A stretch of 12,819 nucleotides of DNA from Ignavibacteria bacterium (lineage in GTDB: Bacteria; Elusimicrobiota; Endomicrobiia; PHAN01), in the NCBI GenBank assembly GCA_041694835.1, contig JBGFRZ010000087.1, positions 1 to 12,819 of the forward strand, read 5' to 3'. Made by a program: the position numbers and the translations under genes. This document shows positions 117 to 6,210 of the stretch, one piece after another (positions within the stretch are counted from its first letter, which is position 1; each line of letters begins with the position of its first letter). The notes beneath the pieces were generated by a model. The model did not search any database, was not told where the DNA came from, and saw only the letters and a program-made list of their open reading frames with translations.

Positions 117-898
117 TTTCAGGCATGCGAAAATGTCCCGCATGCGGATATAGTTGGGCATGGGAAATTGGCATCCGTTTCAAGTGCCGCAAATGCAAAA
201 CGTACTACACGAATAAGGTTCTTTGGAATAAAAGCCGTCTTCCCGAGTGTGTAAAACTCAAACTTCCGGAGTATTTTGTGCTTGGGGCTCCGGCTTATCG
301 GCTTCGCTTTCGTGGTGGCGCTTGCCGCAGCAGTATTGAACGATTTTTCCGAATTATCAGAAGGCGGGCTTTCGACCCACGAGGAATGCAGGGAATCTCT
401 CATCGGTCAGATTGAGTGCGACGAGACGATGTTCGGCGGAAAACGAGCGGGAAAAAGAGGATGGGGCGATGGCGGAAAGATAATCGTTCCGGGTATACTG
501 AAACGAAATGGAATTGTGCGGGTTTTTCCGGTACTTGGCCGCGATGGGGAAAGAATTATCCCGGCAGTTATAGAAGCCACAAAACCTGGCAGCCTTTACT
601 ATACCGATGACTGGCATGCGTATGGTTCCTTGTCCGTAAGAGGTGAGCACATTGTTGTTCGGAAAGAAAAAGGAAAACCCAAAGGGCGAGACCATATTAA
701 CAGTATCGAGGGATTTTGGAGTTATGCCAAAAACTGGCTTTATCAATACCGTGGTGTGCCCAAAAAGTTTTTCCATCTTTATTTAGATGAAATTTCTTTT
801 AGGTTTAATTACAGACATGAGGACATTTTCCGTCGGATTCTTAAACTCTTGAAGACAGTTACATGCTAAATTTTGGTGCTTTTTCATAAGGCATTACC
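80..898 (+). mobile_element. IS1595-family insertion sequence (819 bp), degenerate
   Basis: Imperfect terminal inverted repeats: 80-111 GGTAATACCTAATCAAAGTGCACCAAATTTAG vs reverse complement of 866-898 GGTAATGCCTTATGAAAAAGCACCAAAATTTAG. They enclose a transposase. No target duplication (flanks AAAAAAAA / ATAATTAT). Confidence 0.9.
125..869 (+). pseudogene. IS1595-family (ISXO2-like DDE) transposase, split by a +1 frameshift near 360-380
   Basis: ORF 125-415 has the Zn-ribbon CPAC..CRKC. ORF 276-869 has IECDET, GKRGWG, YYTDDW, HINSIEGFWS..K and YLDEISFRFN. Removing one C of CCC at 376-378 joins the frames (...RRAFDHEECRESLIGQIECDE). Confidence 0.88.
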
Positions 899-930: not shown

Positions 931-1012
931 TGTCTCATGTCTAAAATCTGTAGTCTAAGTTCATCTCCCAACCTCATCAACTTATCACTCAAAACTCATC
1001 AAATCATATCAA
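931..1012. repeat. Degenerate short-period tandem arrays (7-mer, then ~8-mer)
   Basis: 931-958 TGTCTCA TGTCTAA AATCTGT AGTCTAA; 961-1012 repeated CTCATCAA/CTTATCAC-like units. Confidence 0.5.
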
Positions 1013-1239
1013 AATAACCGTATGCACATAATTTTTGCTGTCTCAATATGTTTTTTTACTTCTTCAGGCACGTATCCTGAAACAGAGAATTTTAGTAATC
1101 GTTCCCGTATATAATTTGTTGTGTAAGCATTCCTTCTAATACCATTTAGAATCATAGATGTAAATCCTATACTTGCTTTATCTTGTTTTACCAATTCTTC
1201 AACTGGAATAACTTTATCGTGTTTTATTGTATTCCTCAT
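1009..1239 (-). pseudogene. 5' fragment of a hypothetical gene, frameshifted and truncated
   Basis: Protein-like segment PVEELVKQDK...RERLLKFSVSGYVPEEVKKHIETAK directly follows the 985-aa gene. After the A-run near 1031-1035 an alternative frame continues LCAYGYFD, then runs into the repeat array. Confidence 0.4.
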
Positions 1240-4171
1240 ATAATTGTCTCAAGAATTCATATTCACGACTGACATAGATCTCACATATATTTTCTGCTTC
1301 TTCTATTTGTTCGTTAACTTTTGAATCATACAAATATTTTACTATTGAATGAATATTTTCCTCTCTAAAATCTGGCGTGGTGTTTTTTAGCATTTCTAAA
1401 TATACTTTCCCTACAAAATTTATACTTTGCTTTTTGTCTTTTAACTCATTAAGATATTCAATAAAGAAGGATGAATGAAAACTGACATCAACATATAAAG
1501 CAGATATTTTCAACCAGTCAAAATTTTCAGAATTAATTTCTGGTAAAAATACAGTCAAATTACACAATTCTGATAGTATTTTTTTATCTTCATTATTTAA
1601 CTTCTTTTGTTTCTCTTTATATTTATTTTCATGGACCCATCGCCAGAAATCAATTATTTTATTTTCTATCTTTGTTCTTTCTTCATCTTCAATTGACTGT
1701 TCTTGTTCCTGCTCTCTTCTCTGCATCCAGAAAAAACCAATCATTTCTTTTATTTGAGAGGTGTCCCATCTACCAAGAAGTTTCCTGAATAAACTCTTGT
1801 TGTCATCTATGTCCTCAATTCCACGCAAATATCCTATACAGATATGTTGAACAAGTTGGTCTAAGGAATATTTTCCTTTGAATTGATAATCTATTGCTTT
1901 TTCATAATGAGGTTTCATTAATATATATAACTCATTATCAATCCTCCCATTGGATAAATACCCATCCATAAATGCTTCCCATAATTGTTCTTTTTCGATA
2001 GTGAATGTTCTTATCTTATCTTTGGTCCACTTTTTGTCCAAATGATAATAGAAATCCAGTAAATGTCTACCAAGCCAGACATAACTTTCTATTATTTCAT
2101 TATTCAAAAGTTCTTCATATTTCTTCTTGATGTTTACTTCCCAACTGACTCTTTGTTTGGTTTTTGATTTTTCTTCAAATCGTTTAATCCTTAATGCCAA
2201 TATAAATAATGCTTCTGTTATTTTTCCAAAAGATGAATTCAACGCGTGTCCTACAAAATCTCCTGTAATAGGTTGTTCACTTAAAATCTTTTCCTTGTCT
2301 GCCAGCAAATTATCTAATATTTGAAATAGTATTTCTTGTGCTTTCGTAAAATGCTCTTCTGAAAATGCCCAATCATCATCTTCGGTTCCCTGTATAATAA
2401 GTTCACCTATCATGCCTACCACCCAGAGGTGGTTTGCTTTCCAATCATCACCTTCAATTTTATATTTATCATCCCAAAAGTCTTTAGGTGTTATATATTC
2501 TTTAGTGAAATTAAAAAGTTTTCCCCAATCAATTATTTTCTTCTTTTCCCATGCATCTCGTATTCCCCAGAGAATATCATATACATACAAATATCCTGTT
2601 TTTAAGAATGGATTCAAATCATCAATAAATTTTTCTGGTTTCTCTTGAACACTGCTCTTTAAGATATCTGATAGCCCACCTATAGTCGGACCTTTCCAGA
2701 AATTAACTGTTTTGAATGTTCTTAAATATTCTGCCAATTCTTTATTGCACATTTTTAATATCGTTTCTTTGTTTAATGGTGATGGGCCGGGACCTACACG
2801 GACTTCTTGTTCTTTAAAATTGAGTTCATCTTCTTCTTTGGTGATACTTTTATACTTTTCATATAGAGGTTTGAAATACTTATCATCTTTTAATGCTGAA
2901 TACCATTTTTGTTTTTGATATGCAGAATAGTATTCTTTATATTTTTCTTCAGGGTGGGGTTTGTCAGGAACTTTTGTTTCTATAATATTTTTAATTTTTT
3001 CTCTTTCTTCTAGTGAAAACTGATTGCCATATCTTTGTAATATCGTATAAACTTCTGCTTCATAATGTGGATCGTTAAAAATATGAATTGCTATCTCATC
3101 TTTGACAACTAACCCCCAAAGTATTTCTTTATAATTATCCCAATAGGTTCCAATTATAAATAGAGTCAATCTAAGAAATAATGGATATTGATATTCACTC
3201 AGAAACTTTTCAATTATTTTTAAGGTTACATCTTTATTTTTCTCTGATTTCGCTACTAAAACATCTCTTAAAATCAGTGTGAGGACCTGTTCTGAATTGT
3301 ATATATGAGGAGTAGCAAACAAAGAAGAAAACCAGATATAAGATAAATCAACTATACCGCTCGGCTGTTCTTTCTCAAAAATACTTTTTAATTTATCCGC
3401 TAAATTGAATATAACATTTTCACTACATTTTTCACCGATTTTTGAAGCAATTTTCTTATTTATAAATGATTTTATAAGCCAATGTGTATCTACAATTGTT
3501 TTAGGTTCATATTCAAGTTTTTCTTCATCTGTTCTTTTCTCTTCTGGTTTGTCAAAGATATGCTTATACTTTTCTCTTATTTCTTTTTTATATTGTTCAG
3601 TATATTTAGGAACCCATTTTATTTGAGTAACGATATTTACAATCTTTTCTGCTTTTCTCCAATCATTAGAATTGTTACTATTTAATAACTTTGGTAGAAG
3701 TTTTTCTATAATTTCTGAAACAGGTAATATATTATCAAACTTTGAATCAAGCCAGACAGGGGTTAAATCTAATATCTCATCGTTAATTTTATCAGTTGGT
3801 AAATTACATAGTATTTTTACAAAATACCGCCAGGTGCGATAGTTATCTAAACATTTATTATGTTCAATATGATATTTTGTAACATTTTTAATAATTTCAA
3901 GTAATTCATCAGCATATTTCTCATTCTCAGGTTGTGCAATCTGTTGAGAAACTCTTTCTAAATAATCCAAAACATTCCAGTGGGGAATCGTCCAATATCC
4001 CTCTTTATCAGCAGGTTTTGGACACGGCGCTTTTCCGGGCGAGAAATAACCTTTTTCTTTTAATGGATAAAACCATTTAATATCTGAAACTTTATTAAAG
4101 AAATAGTTTTCGTATAAAATATCATCACTTATTAGTCCTAATACTGCTTCTTCCTTTGCTGAAAGAGTCAT
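1214..4171 (-). CDS. Large (985 aa) predicted alpha-helical protein, putative sensor/partner subunit of the SIR2 defence effector
   Basis: Long intact ORF. ATG overlaps the SIR2 stop (ATGA, 4168-4171), with GAGGT 6 nt upstream. Motifs YFF..V....WF..L...GYF.P...P.P, GPSPL....L.M, F..GP...GL...L...V...P..F and ALNS..GK..EAL recall C-terminal regions of long sirtuin/NLR-like defence proteins. No Walker A GK[ST]. Function is inferred. Confidence 0.85.
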   Translation of the reverse strand: MTLSAKEEAVLGLISDDILYENYFFNKVSDIKWFYPLKEKGYFSPGKAPCPKPADKEGYWTIPHWNVLDYLERVSQQIAQPENEKYADELLEIIKNVTKYHIEHNKCLDNYRTWRYFVKILCNLPTDKINDEILDLTPVWLDSKFDNILPVSEIIEKLLPKLLNSNNSNDWRKAEKIVNIVTQIKWVPKYTEQYKKEIREKYKHIFDKPEEKRTDEEKLEYEPKTIVDTHWLIKSFINKKIASKIGEKCSENVIFNLADKLKSIFEKEQPSGIVDLSYIWFSSLFATPHIYNSEQVLTLILRDVLVAKSEKNKDVTLKIIEKFLSEYQYPLFLRLTLFIIGTYWDNYKEILWGLVVKDEIAIHIFNDPHYEAEVYTILQRYGNQFSLEEREKIKNIIETKVPDKPHPEEKYKEYYSAYQKQKWYSALKDDKYFKPLYEKYKSITKEEDELNFKEQEVRVGPGPSPLNKETILKMCNKELAEYLRTFKTVNFWKGPTIGGLSDILKSSVQEKPEKFIDDLNPFLKTGYLYVYDILWGIRDAWEKKKIIDWGKLFNFTKEYITPKDFWDDKYKIEGDDWKANHLWVVGMIGELIIQGTEDDDWAFSEEHFTKAQEILFQILDNLLADKEKILSEQPITGDFVGHALNSSFGKITEALFILALRIKRFEEKSKTKQRVSWEVNIKKKYEELLNNEIIESYVWLGRHLLDFYYHLDKKWTKDKIRTFTIEKEQLWEAFMDGYLSNGRIDNELYILMKPHYEKAIDYQFKGKYSLDQLVQHICIGYLRGIEDIDDNKSLFRKLLGRWDTSQIKEMIGFFWMQRREQEQEQSIEDEERTKIENKIIDFWRWVHENKYKEKQKKLNNEDKKILSELCNLTVFLPEINSENFDWLKISALYVDVSFHSSFFIEYLNELKDKKQSINFVGKVYLEMLKNTTPDFREENIHSIVKYLYDSKVNEQIEEAENICEIYVSREYEFLRQLYEEYNKTR

Positions 4172-5163
4172 TTAATTACCTCATCAATCAATTTTACTCT
4201 ATTAAAAAAGTTTTGTGGTCTTGCTTTAGGTCCTATTTGTTTTGCCCATTCGTAAATTACAGTAGCAAGATGTTCATACCCATTTTCATCTATTGGATAA
4301 GGTAATAATTGGATCCCTAAATCTGCATAATATTTTCTTTGGAACTCCAATAAATTTATTTCTTTTTTAAATATTGGATAAAGCATAAAATGTCTCAATT
4401 CACCTTTTGCAGTTTGAGATTTGCTAATCATAAATTCCAATATTTCATATTCTTCCAATCCATAGCCAACGAATAGAACAGTGTAAAATTTAAAAACTTC
4501 TTCAATTAACACTGCTGGTTTAGAATCTCTTTCATAATGTTTCATATAATCAACAATTGTCATTATCATATTTCTCTCATCTTTTACGCTTCCATGAAGA
4601 TGAATCACCACCCCATTGTTCAAATTCGATACTAATAGTTGTTCCTGTGAGTAAAGAATTTTACTCCTTTTACTCTGCTCTTTTCCACTACTTGGTTGTA
4701 ATGCTATTTCTGAAACAGTTGATGTTTCTGGATAAGGTTTCTGAGCAATCTGGTCTAAATGGTCGTCATAATTTGTTGTTATATAAATACCATTAAAAGC
4801 ATAAAGAGATTCGTATATTTTATATTTCTTATTTAATGATTCATCCCCTTTCAAAAGAGATTTTATATTGGGTGATTGTATATTTTTCTCTTCAAGTATC
4901 TTCCTGCAAATTGTTAATAGTTTTCTTACGTCTAACTTACTAAGATTTTCGTATTCGCAATAGTTAATACACTTATTTTCATATAAATATTTTAAATAAT
5001 TAAGAGCAAAAGTCTTCCAAGACGGACACCCAATAATTCGGGATACCCCTGCTCCAATAAACAAAACTAAATTCCCACTTGTTGCTGCTGAAAAAATGCC
5101 ATCCGGGACTTTAGGAATATCTGGAATATCTTTAATACTATCTTTAGTCTCAATTGTAGACAT
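4168..5163 (-). CDS. SIR2-family (SIR2_2-like) NAD+-consuming domain protein, defence-associated sirtuin effector
   Basis: Motifs LVLFIGAGVS...G.PSW, YITTNYD (Asn codon 4771-4773), IHLHGS (His codon 4594-4596) and VLFVGYG. ATG at 5163 preferred; in-frame GTG at 5175 is an alternative start. Confidence 0.92.
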   Translation of the reverse strand: MSTIETKDSIKDIPDIPKVPDGIFSAATSGNLVLFIGAGVSRIIGCPSWKTFALNYLKYLYENKCINYCEYENLSKLDVRKLLTICRKILEEKNIQSPNIKSLLKGDESLNKKYKIYESLYAFNGIYITTNYDDHLDQIAQKPYPETSTVSEIALQPSSGKEQSKRSKILYSQEQLLVSNLNNGVVIHLHGSVKDERNMIMTIVDYMKHYERDSKPAVLIEEVFKFYTVLFVGYGLEEYEILEFMISKSQTAKGELRHFMLYPIFKKEINLLEFQRKYYADLGIQLLPYPIDENGYEHLATVIYEWAKQIGPKARPQNFFNRVKLIDEVIK

Positions 5164-5167
5164 AATT

Positions 5168-5375
5168 TTATACACTCTTTGCTTTTTCTAAGCGGTTTTT
5201 GACGAGTTCACAGATAGACCAGTAAACTTCTTTGCGTTCCTGCTCGGTTAAACCTAAAATATCAAAAATAATATCATCAAGTTCTTTGCGGTCAGGTAAT
5301 GGTTTGGGTTCCTGCTCACGAATAGGCTGTTTGGGATTGATACCACATTCTTCAAAAATTGACAATATTTCTCTT
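5168..5375 (-). pseudogene. C-terminal remnant of a probable Type IIG / N6-DNA-methylase restriction-modification fusion gene
   Basis: SIFEECGINPKQPIREQEPKPLPDRKELDDIIFDILGLTEQERKEVYWSICELVKNRLEKAKSV matches the R.ELD..IFD.LGLT..ER..VY...LV..RL.KA tail I recognise from Eco57I-like/IIG RM proteins. The first codons of the ORF-track call (MILYP) come from the adjacent IS end. Confidence 0.7.
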
Positions 5376-5651
5376 GGGTATAGTATCAATTCGAGCTACT
5401 AAAATGTAAGTTTTATGCTCAAAAAGCAATCTCAAAATTTGAGCAATTTGTTGTTTAATTGTAAAATTCTATGGTTATATCTCCACACATATTCAGCCAA
5501 ATAAAGTGGCAAATAATAGGGCTTCCATTCATACTTGCAATTATAACAACGATACTTCTGTCGTAGGATATTATATGCTTTGTTAAAAGAACATTCAGGA
5601 CATACTACATTTTTTCATACCACCATTTTAACATATCTGGTTACTATACCC
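5376..5651 (-). mobile_element. Internally deleted IS1595-family derivative (276-bp MITE-like element)
   Basis: Inverted ends GGGTATAGTA (5376-5385) / TACTATACCC (5642-5651), with further TAAAATG matches inside. Minus frame 5611-5432 reads NVVCPECSFNKAYNILRQKYRCYNCKYEWKP-YYLPLYLAEYVWRYNHR..., a Zn-ribbon joined directly to the transposase C-terminal motif. ATG at 5618 is out of frame by one A in an A6 run. Confidence 0.85.
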
Positions 5652-5653: not shown

Positions 5654-5770
5654 AGGAATATCTTCGACTGCAGCACACTCTTTGATGAGAGAGGGGTCGG
5701 CAGAAAAACTGTCAAACCAAACAATTCAACATTTTTAAAAACAAAACAAGGCAAAACTTCCAGATCGAAA

Positions 5771-5860
5771 CGGGGACGCTGAACAACACACGCGATCACC
5801 CGTATTTCATACGGGGATGCTGAACAACACACGCGATCGCCCGTATTTCATACGGGGACG
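5771..5860. repeat. 41-bp tandem repeat (2 full units plus the tRNA-Asp end), each unit carrying the 3' terminal 8 nt of tRNA-Asp
   Basis: 5771-5811 and 5812-5852 CGGGGAyGCTGAACAACACACGCGATCrCCCGTATTTCATA (2 differences). The third CGGGGACG at 5853 is the tRNA acceptor end. Confidence 0.95.
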
Positions 5861-5928
5861 ACGGGATTTGAACCCGCGATCTCGGCCTTGACAGGGCCGC
5901 ATGTTAAACCAAGCTACACCACGTCCCC
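5853..5928 (-). tRNA. tRNA-Asp (GTC), CCA not encoded
   Basis: Acceptor stem GGGGACG/CGTCCCC + discriminator G; anticodon arm CGGCC-CTGTCAA-GGCCG; T arm GCGGG-TTCAAAT-CCCGT. Confidence 0.97.
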
Positions 5929-5995: not shown

Positions 5996-6008
5996 TTTTT
6001 TATCTTCT

Positions 6009-6104
6009 AAACAATGGATGATGTTCCGATTTGTCGGGACAACCTTTCAGGCTTGCCCGTTAAAAACAATGGATGGTGTAGGATTTGGACCTACGACCTT
6101 TCGG
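6009..6104 (-). repeat. Two decayed tandem copies of the 3' half of tRNA-Val (pseudo-tRNA fragments)
   Basis: 6068-6104 matches 6131-6167 at 33/37 nt. 6009-6050 is a more diverged copy (AAACAATGGATGrTGT...GATTTG...ACrACCTTTC). Confidence 0.85.
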
Positions 6105-6132
6105 TCCCGCCCCCCGGCGCCGTTAGAAATAA

Positions 6133-6204
6133 TGGACAGTGTAGGATTTGAACCTACGACCTTCCGGGTGTAAACCGGGCGCTCTCCCGCTGAGCTAACT
6201 GTCC
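6133..6204 (-). tRNA. tRNA-Val (TAC), CCA not encoded
   Basis: GGACAGT-TA-GCTC-AGCGGGA-GAGC-G-CCCGG-TTTACAC-CCGGA-AGGTC-GTAGG-TTCAAAT-CCTAC-ACTGTCC-A cloverleaf. Confidence 0.96.
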
Positions 6205-6210
6205 ATATAC

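Follow-up and report, generated by a model that had tools for sequence, protein, structure and literature searches.

A SIR2 gene and a solenoid gene with overlapping ends

The stretch of DNA analysed here, called the window, is one entire contig of 12,819 bp (JBGFRZ010000087.1) from a 1.9-Mb Ignavibacteria bacterium genome of 89 contigs (GCA_041694835.1). Two adjoining genes on its reverse strand are the subject of this study. The first (4168..5163) encodes a SIR2 NADase of 331 amino acids (aa). The second (1214..4171) encodes an all-α solenoid protein of 985 aa, hereafter the sensor, which matches the C-terminal ~920 residues of fused DSR1-type proteins. We consider the pair most probably a naturally split, two-subunit defence-associated sirtuin (DSR) of the DSR1 type, and no new kind of system.

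The open reading frame (ORF) of the small protein, 4168..5175 (−), opens at an in-frame GTG at position 5175 that would give 335 aa; the likely start is the ATG at 5163, and the stop is the TGA at 4168-4170. Its translation contains the motifs FIGAGVS, ITTNYD and HLHGS, and SIR2_2 (E 2e-17) is the sole Pfam family found in it (P0001). The catalytic residues Asn131 and His190 are encoded at 4771-4773 and 4594-4596, respectively. In a sequence search of the PDB, the closest solved SIR2 domain belongs to DSR2 chains (E 1.5e-6): the asparagine of ITTNYD (N131) aligns with N133 of DSR2, and the histidine of HLHG (H190) with H171, which is changed in the PDB entries deposited as 'DSR2 H171A'. On these alignments, the first gene encodes a SIR2-fold enzyme with its catalytic Asn and His kept. 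Among 33 separately encoded SIR2 partners of related loci, N131 and D133 never vary, and at least 90% retain H190 and likewise the GAG motif; such conservation argues that the separate SIR2 partners are working enzymes under constraint. Among PADLOC models, ThsA (E 3.8e-8) and LmuA match the SIR2 part weakly. A protein-database search with the SIR2 protein, which took in longer proteins only and not relatives of similar length, returned at least 120 fused relatives, all with SIR2_2; the best one listed is P0040, at 56% identity.

Pfam recognises no family in the 985-aa sensor (P0002), and in particular no ATPase, PIWI or TIR domain. From an alignment of 40 sequences, AlphaFold2 predicts a structure (mean pLDDT 87.9, pTM 0.58) made of helices throughout, with a low-confidence, disordered loop at residues 453-457. 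Compared with the PDB by Foldseek, it resembles solely generic HEAT/ARM solenoids such as RRP12, importin-β, CAND1 and exportins, at TM scores of at most 0.31, and DSR2 is not among the 48 matches listed; no specific fold assignment for the sensor follows from these hits. The sequence profile of the sensor likewise matches none of the PDB chains at E up to 1, in a library that includes the DSR2 entries. The sensor is thus confidently predicted as an all-helical solenoid, one without a specific solved match.

The two genes meet at 4168..4182 (−), where the DNA can be read directly: GAGGT at 4178-4182, a 6-nt spacer (AATTAA) and then ATGA, in which the SIR2 stop codon TGA (4168-4170) overlaps the sensor start codon ATG (4169-4171). 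An in-frame TAA immediately precedes this ATG. The ATGA overlap, together with a GAGGT site of its own for the second gene, is by its sequence a layout of translational coupling. The nearest relative of the sensor, P0003 (70% identical), begins with MTLSAREKAVL, at the same start Met as the window protein (MTLSAKEEAVL). A six-frame search of the genome shows neither ORF to be truncated relative to the Dsr1 model or interrupted by a stop. The initial annotation had described a SIR2 protein of ~331 aa with intact GAGVS, TTNYD and HLHGS motifs and no extra domain, overlapping through ATGA a 985-aa ORF with GAGGT 6 nt upstream. It had taken this for a genuine two-gene layout with no frameshift, and had seen no Walker A, PIWI or TIR motif in the partner. 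These observations hold, and the two-gene reading gains from the common start with P0003 and from the related loci described below.

We modelled sensor residues 1-660 together with the SIR2 protein, each supplied as an alignment. The complex scores 0.46 (runs of 0.42, 0.46 and 0.50), against 0.22 for the best control. Of 80 solved complexes, 58 reach the mark set for this score, as do 2 of 110 mismatched pairs; scores of 0.60 or less that reach the mark come from only 7 of the 80 solved complexes, yet from both mismatched pairs. The runs share at least 42% of their contacts, with a partner pLDDT of at least 74. The prediction is compatible with binding between SIR2 and sensor, and is no proof of it.

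Correspondence with DSR1 and the layout of relatives

We compared the pair with the PADLOC Dsr1 models PDLC04166, PDLC04167 and PDLC02183 and with the NCBIfam model NF041818. PDLC04166, a model of 1227 positions, spans both proteins colinearly and from end to end. It matches the SIR2 protein (E 6.4e-81) over about its first 300 positions, with the best stretch at 138-300, and the sensor (E 1.7e-153) over positions 308-1226. The six-frame genome search adds a SIR2 stretch on positions 4-137 and gives the same picture overall. Since both proteins match this one model, the pair corresponds to a DSR1-type protein divided at the border between the SIR2 domain and the C-terminal module.

Fused relatives align colinearly with both window proteins, and no residues are missing. 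On P0006, SIR2 residues 26-328 fall at 27-327 and sensor residues 2-984 at 324-1336; on P0040, SIR2 residues 1-329 fall at 1-329 and sensor residues 6-980 at 346-1328. The alignments identify the second gene as the ~900-residue α-solenoid module that serves as C-terminal sensor in fused DSR1-type proteins. The connection to canonical Dsr1 is remote. NF041818 is matched by 3 of 40 stand-alone sensor relatives (best E 1.5e-18), and the sensor regions of fused relatives match NF041818, PDLC02183 and PDLC04167 colinearly, as with P0006, whose residues 588-757 correspond to NF041818 positions 592-762. Among 401 genomes from the class to which G001 belongs, NF041818 gave 0 matches, but the controls likewise gave 0, so that this negative carries no weight.

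A scan of one genome per species recovered 52 related loci from many phyla, archaea included; one of them (L044) is a 3' fragment, so that 51 could be classified. A separate SIR2 gene abuts the sensor gene in 35 of the 51, at gaps of −17 to +43 nt. These include two loci with frame-broken sensors (L017, L055), one with a SIR2 piece of 97 aa (L040) and one in which the contig end cuts the SIR2 gene (L010). With starts as called in this analysis, the 4-nt overlap seen in the window recurs in 18 of these 35 plain split loci. Four further loci (L009, L012, L019, L036) place a separate SIR2 gene before a TIR-sensor fusion, which brings the separate SIR2 gene to 39 of 51 loci overall. SIR2 and sensor are fused in four (L015, L021, L029, L047). 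The remaining loci comprise four TIR-sensor fusions with no SIR2 gene seen upstream (L004 among them lying at a contig edge), one small separate TIR gene (L014), one PIN-sensor fusion (L039), and two sensors behind hsdR that carry an N-terminal extension of 158-168 aa without a family (L032, L033).

A word-indexed search with the 985-aa query lists at least 119 relatives, 8 with SIR2_2 (1262-1358 aa) and 18 with TIR; 93 of the same 119 have no Pfam domain, and 89 of those are at most 1086 aa long. An exhaustive search with the sensor profile retrieves 3694 cluster representatives at an E threshold of 0.001; at 1e-30, 1225 remain. The best 150 of the 3694 divide into 98 stand-alone sensors, 19 TIR-fused and 7 SIR2-fused proteins, 13 with another N-terminal extension of at least 100 aa, and 13 fragments or ambiguous cases, of which 4 exceed 1200 aa and may be misfiled fusions. 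Across many phyla of bacteria and archaea the split layout is conserved, and it is more frequent than the fused form. The branch is found mainly in uncultured anaerobes and archaea. The initial annotation had called for such a survey of fused against split forms, holding that a two-gene system would be in doubt if all close homologues were fused and reads showed an indel at 4168-4180; split forms turn out to be the commoner (35 + 4 of 51 loci versus 4 fused), and stand-alone sensors make up the larger part of those best 150 representatives.

Several of these loci deserve a description of their own. L009, L012, L019 and L036 each provide one sensor with two NAD-related effector modules, a separate SIR2 and an N-terminal TIR; their SIR2 genes lie at 4608-5498, 4598-5470, 4571-5437 and 4563-5498, respectively, and the sensor match begins at 6001 in each. 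L039 carries PIN_12 (4067-4882, E 4.8e-21) on its sensor. The N-terminal modules of the sensors behind hsdR, at 5497-6000 in L032 and 2948-3421 in L033, belong to no family found by Pfam.

A quick maximum-likelihood tree, computed without bootstraps, was built from 72 sensor regions: 46 locus rows of at least 600 aa, the window included, and 26 database proteins. It excludes L017, L055 and L044, as well as L023, L029, L042 and L050 (<600 aa), and with so quick a method individual placements are not to be over-read. Architectures are intermixed on the tree. Placing its 14 fused-SIR2 rows takes 10 changes, of which starred branches force at least 9; shuffled labels need 13.0 on average, and 4 of 500 shuffles reach so low a count. 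The window stands in a starred group of six rows, with four stand-alone proteins and the fused P0006. Identity to the window also differs between modules: P0006 reaches 68% in the sensor and 26% in SIR2, P0040 49% in the sensor and 56% in SIR2. From these comparisons, SIR2 and sensor modules recombine. SIR2, TIR, PIN and unassigned modules are intermixed on closely related sensors, which shows that effectors are exchanged rapidly.

One pair of rows on the tree lies especially close. L008, with a split SIR2, and P0057, with an N-terminal TIR fusion, have nearly identical sensors, separated by end branches of 0.039 each, a path of ~0.08 changes per column. Their contrast points to a very recent effector swap.

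Island setting and alternative explanations

The gene pair sits in DNA of low GC content, 28-30% (region 1001-5000) versus 42-47% in the flanks. At the low-coordinate boundary of this island lies a transposase gene of the IS1595 family of insertion sequences (IS), at 125..869 (+), broken over two frames (125-415 and 276-869); Pfam finds DDE_Tnp_IS1595 (E 1e-20) on the second and, weakly, Zn_ribbon_IS1595 on the first. The other boundary carries two tRNA genes found by ARAGORN, tRNA-Asp (5853-5928, −) and tRNA-Val (6132-6205, −). A partial duplicate of the 3' half of tRNA-Val lies at 6057-6104 (direct repeat D1, 88%), and a 41-nt tandem duplication adjoins tRNA-Asp at 5770-5851 (direct repeat D2, 95%). 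Both are probably attachment-site scars of integrated elements, and the island has the look of an integrated, decayed mobile element.

A short frame at 5420-5625 (−) resembles an internally deleted IS1595 transposase in which the zinc-ribbon start is joined to the C-terminal end; its similarity to the broken copy at 125-869 is weak (tblastx, E 0.006). Were it truly an IS1595 remnant, IS remnants would bracket the island, a point that we note and do not claim.

The initial annotation had described both genes of the pair as intact and all their neighbours as broken. The pair is intact indeed, and the transposase and the methylase remnant described below are broken; farther out, three ORFs are intact, one of 142 aa and two of 415 and 941 aa, the latter two of which we take by eye to be gdhA and uvrA. 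A 76-aa ORF (1009-1239, −) shares 26 nt with the 3' end of the sensor gene. Pfam assigns it to no family and none of the 52 related loci has an equivalent, so it probably does not belong to the system, and we rejected it as a third component. When flanking ORFs of the related loci were clustered, no gene other than a methylase cluster was common to more than four loci; no conserved third gene emerges.

Upstream of SIR2, 5171..5389 (−) holds the last 73 codons of a DNA methyltransferase gene of the Eco57I/MmeI type (type IIG), ending 4 nt before the SIR2 start. Pfam finds nothing on the 73-aa remnant itself, and the type IIG protein of L029 has no significant match in the window by tblastn; the remnant was identified through other loci. 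The genes lying directly upstream of SIR2 in L026, L027, L007, L025, L009, L006 and L023 share 60-73% identity with it at their extreme C-termini. Four of these seven genes are full length, with products of 1174-1214 aa or else of 347 aa; the other three are truncated at contig ends or fragmentary. The upstream genes of L027 and L025 carry Pfam Eco57I and MmeI_Mtase, and intact methylase genes of ~1200 aa lie at 1437-4961 in L027, 1156-4800 in L025 and 1371-4997 in L006. By tblastn, the remnant also matches an annotated DNA methyltransferase of a Thermococcus plasmid (48% identity). A same-strand upstream methylase of the cluster, either type IIG or type I HsdM, occurs in 22 of the 52 loci, and in L032, L033 and L054 the module adjoins HsdR or HsdS genes; it is therefore often found at the 3' end of restriction-modification (RM) operons. 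Judged by these alignments, the methylase gene of the window is deleted, with a 73-codon stump left.

This stump is what gives substance to the best-surviving alternative, namely that the pair is a real split DSR1 gone silent or decaying here, stranded by the deletion of the methylase that led its operon and flanked by IS elements. The frequent upstream methylase of related loci, and the IS1595 remnants and tRNA scars around the island, fit such a history. Against it, no stop interrupts the 331- and 985-aa ORFs, the catalytic residues are retained, and many related loci have no RM gene directly upstream, so that the pair can stand alone. Promoter-like hexamers also occur at 5268-5295 and 5362-5389 (−), as consensus matches only. 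We consider the stranded state clearly improbable.

Much less probable still is a categorically new two-gene SIR2 system unrelated to any named one, the form in which the initial annotation had presented the pair as a candidate. Pfam is blank on the 985-aa protein, the NCBIfam Dsr1 equivalog is not reached, and a full-text literature search found no description of a split DSR. Yet PDLC04166 matches both proteins end to end and gives 1678 bits for P0182, a fused protein of 1227 aa, and the relatives of the sensor match canonical Dsr1 models colinearly. The annotation had itself allowed that a match to a named system would undo the claim of novelty; the pair matches Dsr1 of PADLOC, so that claim is not supported, while its companion idea of a DSR1-sized protein cut in two is supported by the colinear matches.

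Finally, a fused DSR1 gene broken at the junction by a recent frameshift or an assembly error, hence a pseudogene or artefact, would suit the existence of fused relatives (P0006, P0040) and a junction sequence taken from the assembly, but this reading is scarcely credible and already largely refuted by the GAGGT, ATG and preceding TAA of the second gene, by the start Met shared with P0003, by the separate SIR2 gene and recurrent 4-nt overlap of related loci, and by two full-length, uninterrupted ORFs.

The naturally split DSR1 thus remains the reading that we prefer, and several points weigh against it. The NF041818 equivalog gives 30.6 bits on P0001 against a cut-off of 1400, and no match on P0002 at E up to 1. 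Fused relatives of the same branch score likewise only 24-66 bits. With this model so far from being reached, the pair falls on a distant branch, to which the trigger of E. coli Dsr1 may not carry over. No solved structure matches the sensor by sequence, and Foldseek yields generic solenoids only. The complex prediction, at 0.46, is weak, not strong. The junction sequence comes from the assembly alone: among the sequencing runs searched, one DNA run shares 0.04 of words and no RNA run is among the matches listed. Lastly, with the methylase gene and any operon promoter lost, expression in this genome is putative. Promoter-like matches number 33, against a shuffled mean of 26.0 (sd 4.7), which is no convincing excess; with counts near the shuffled expectation, we dropped the promoter and terminator scan as evidence.

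Proposed mechanism and comparison with known systems

The module was probably acquired by horizontal transfer and placed behind a type IIG RM gene. The two proteins would assemble, with the sensor keeping SIR2 inactive until the solenoid binds a phage structural protein; the NADase, once switched on, would degrade NAD+ and so abort or slow phage replication. We infer, in short, that the sensor gates the NADase in trans. Parts of two preprints inform this scheme. As described in the relevant portion of Garb et al. (preprint), DSR1 is a single SIR2-domain protein, NAD+ is depleted on infection, and for phi29 the loss is transient and comes without culture collapse. The portion of a 2026 preprint (PMC12803255) drawn on here assigns to Avs7 and Dsr1 a shared bilobed tetratricopeptide-repeat (TPR) sensor with diverse, exchangeable effectors, and reports that this sensor, as in E. 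coli Dsr1, is triggered by the major capsid protein of the phage.

A bolder extension, to which we grant a modest chance well short of even, makes the free-standing sensor ancestral and dominant in the branch and the single-chain DSR1 a derived fusion. As the other half of that joint proposal, held with the same reserve, the solenoid would be a general trans-acting receptor on which interchangeable effector subunits dock. If so, trigger binding could free the SIR2 subunit to self-assemble into an active oligomer, a route closed to fused forms. Dual-effector sets would be possible, as might be seen in the four loci that combine a SIR2 gene with a TIR-tipped sensor. The position behind RM genes would make the pair a second-line module, co-transcribed with first-line immunity.

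The split DSR1 matters for annotation. DSR1 is catalogued as a one-protein system, and it is made of two proteins here and in most relatives of the branch. Split copies may be under-counted or half-annotated; the NCBI Dsr1 equivalog reaches neither gene. A two-piece DSR1 is also convenient at the bench. NADase and sensor can each be expressed, purified and titrated on their own or exchanged for another, and the gating of a SIR2 enzyme by a sensor of phage proteins becomes open to direct testing.

Two-gene systems with SIR2 are established in SIR2-HerA, in the SIR2/pAgo system SPARSA and in Thoeris (ThsA/ThsB). All of them share with the window a separately encoded SIR2 NADase and a partner protein; the partner differs, as Pfam finds in the window sensor no HerA ATPase, PIWI/APAZ, SLOG or TIR domain. 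The sensor is modelled as an all-α solenoid in place of the HerA-type ATPase that defines SIR2-HerA. Thoeris combines a ThsA with a SLOG/STALD domain and a TIR gene, ThsB; here only the SIR2 part matches ThsA, and Pfam detects neither SLOG nor TIR in either protein of the pair or in the other window ORFs scanned, a scan of the window that was not exhaustive.

DSR2 is a single chain composed of SIR2, MID and an α-solenoid C-terminal domain (CTD), solved for instance in 8k98, and its α-solenoid sensor binds a phage structural protein. The window pair shares with it an identical ITTNYD, an aligned catalytic histidine and an α-solenoid sensor. Unlike the single-chain DSR2, it is split, and the profile of its sensor matches no DSR2 chain, so that no homology to the DSR2 MID/CTD is found.

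The Avs7/Dsr1 family of TPR sensors is alike in being a large helical repeat sensor exchanged among N-terminal effectors, namely NADases, nucleases and kinases, as set out in part of PMC12803255; the sensor clade of the window carries SIR2, TIR, PIN or unassigned N-terminal modules. The likeness of the window sensor to Avs7 is one of description only. As far as the cited part goes, that paper covers fused effectors, and its main text, with the supplementary tables outside this check, does not contain the words stand-alone, operon or adjacent gene.

DSR1 itself is the closest counterpart. Both have a SIR2-fold NADase module of the N-terminal type with catalytic Asn and His, and both have a helical sensor of ~900 residues, which in the window is homologous to that of Dsr1 even though the pair falls short of the 1400-bit cut-off of NF041818. 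The difference lies in the number of chains: DSR1 is one polypeptide, and the window encodes two, from ATGA-coupled genes, the second with its own ribosome-binding site.

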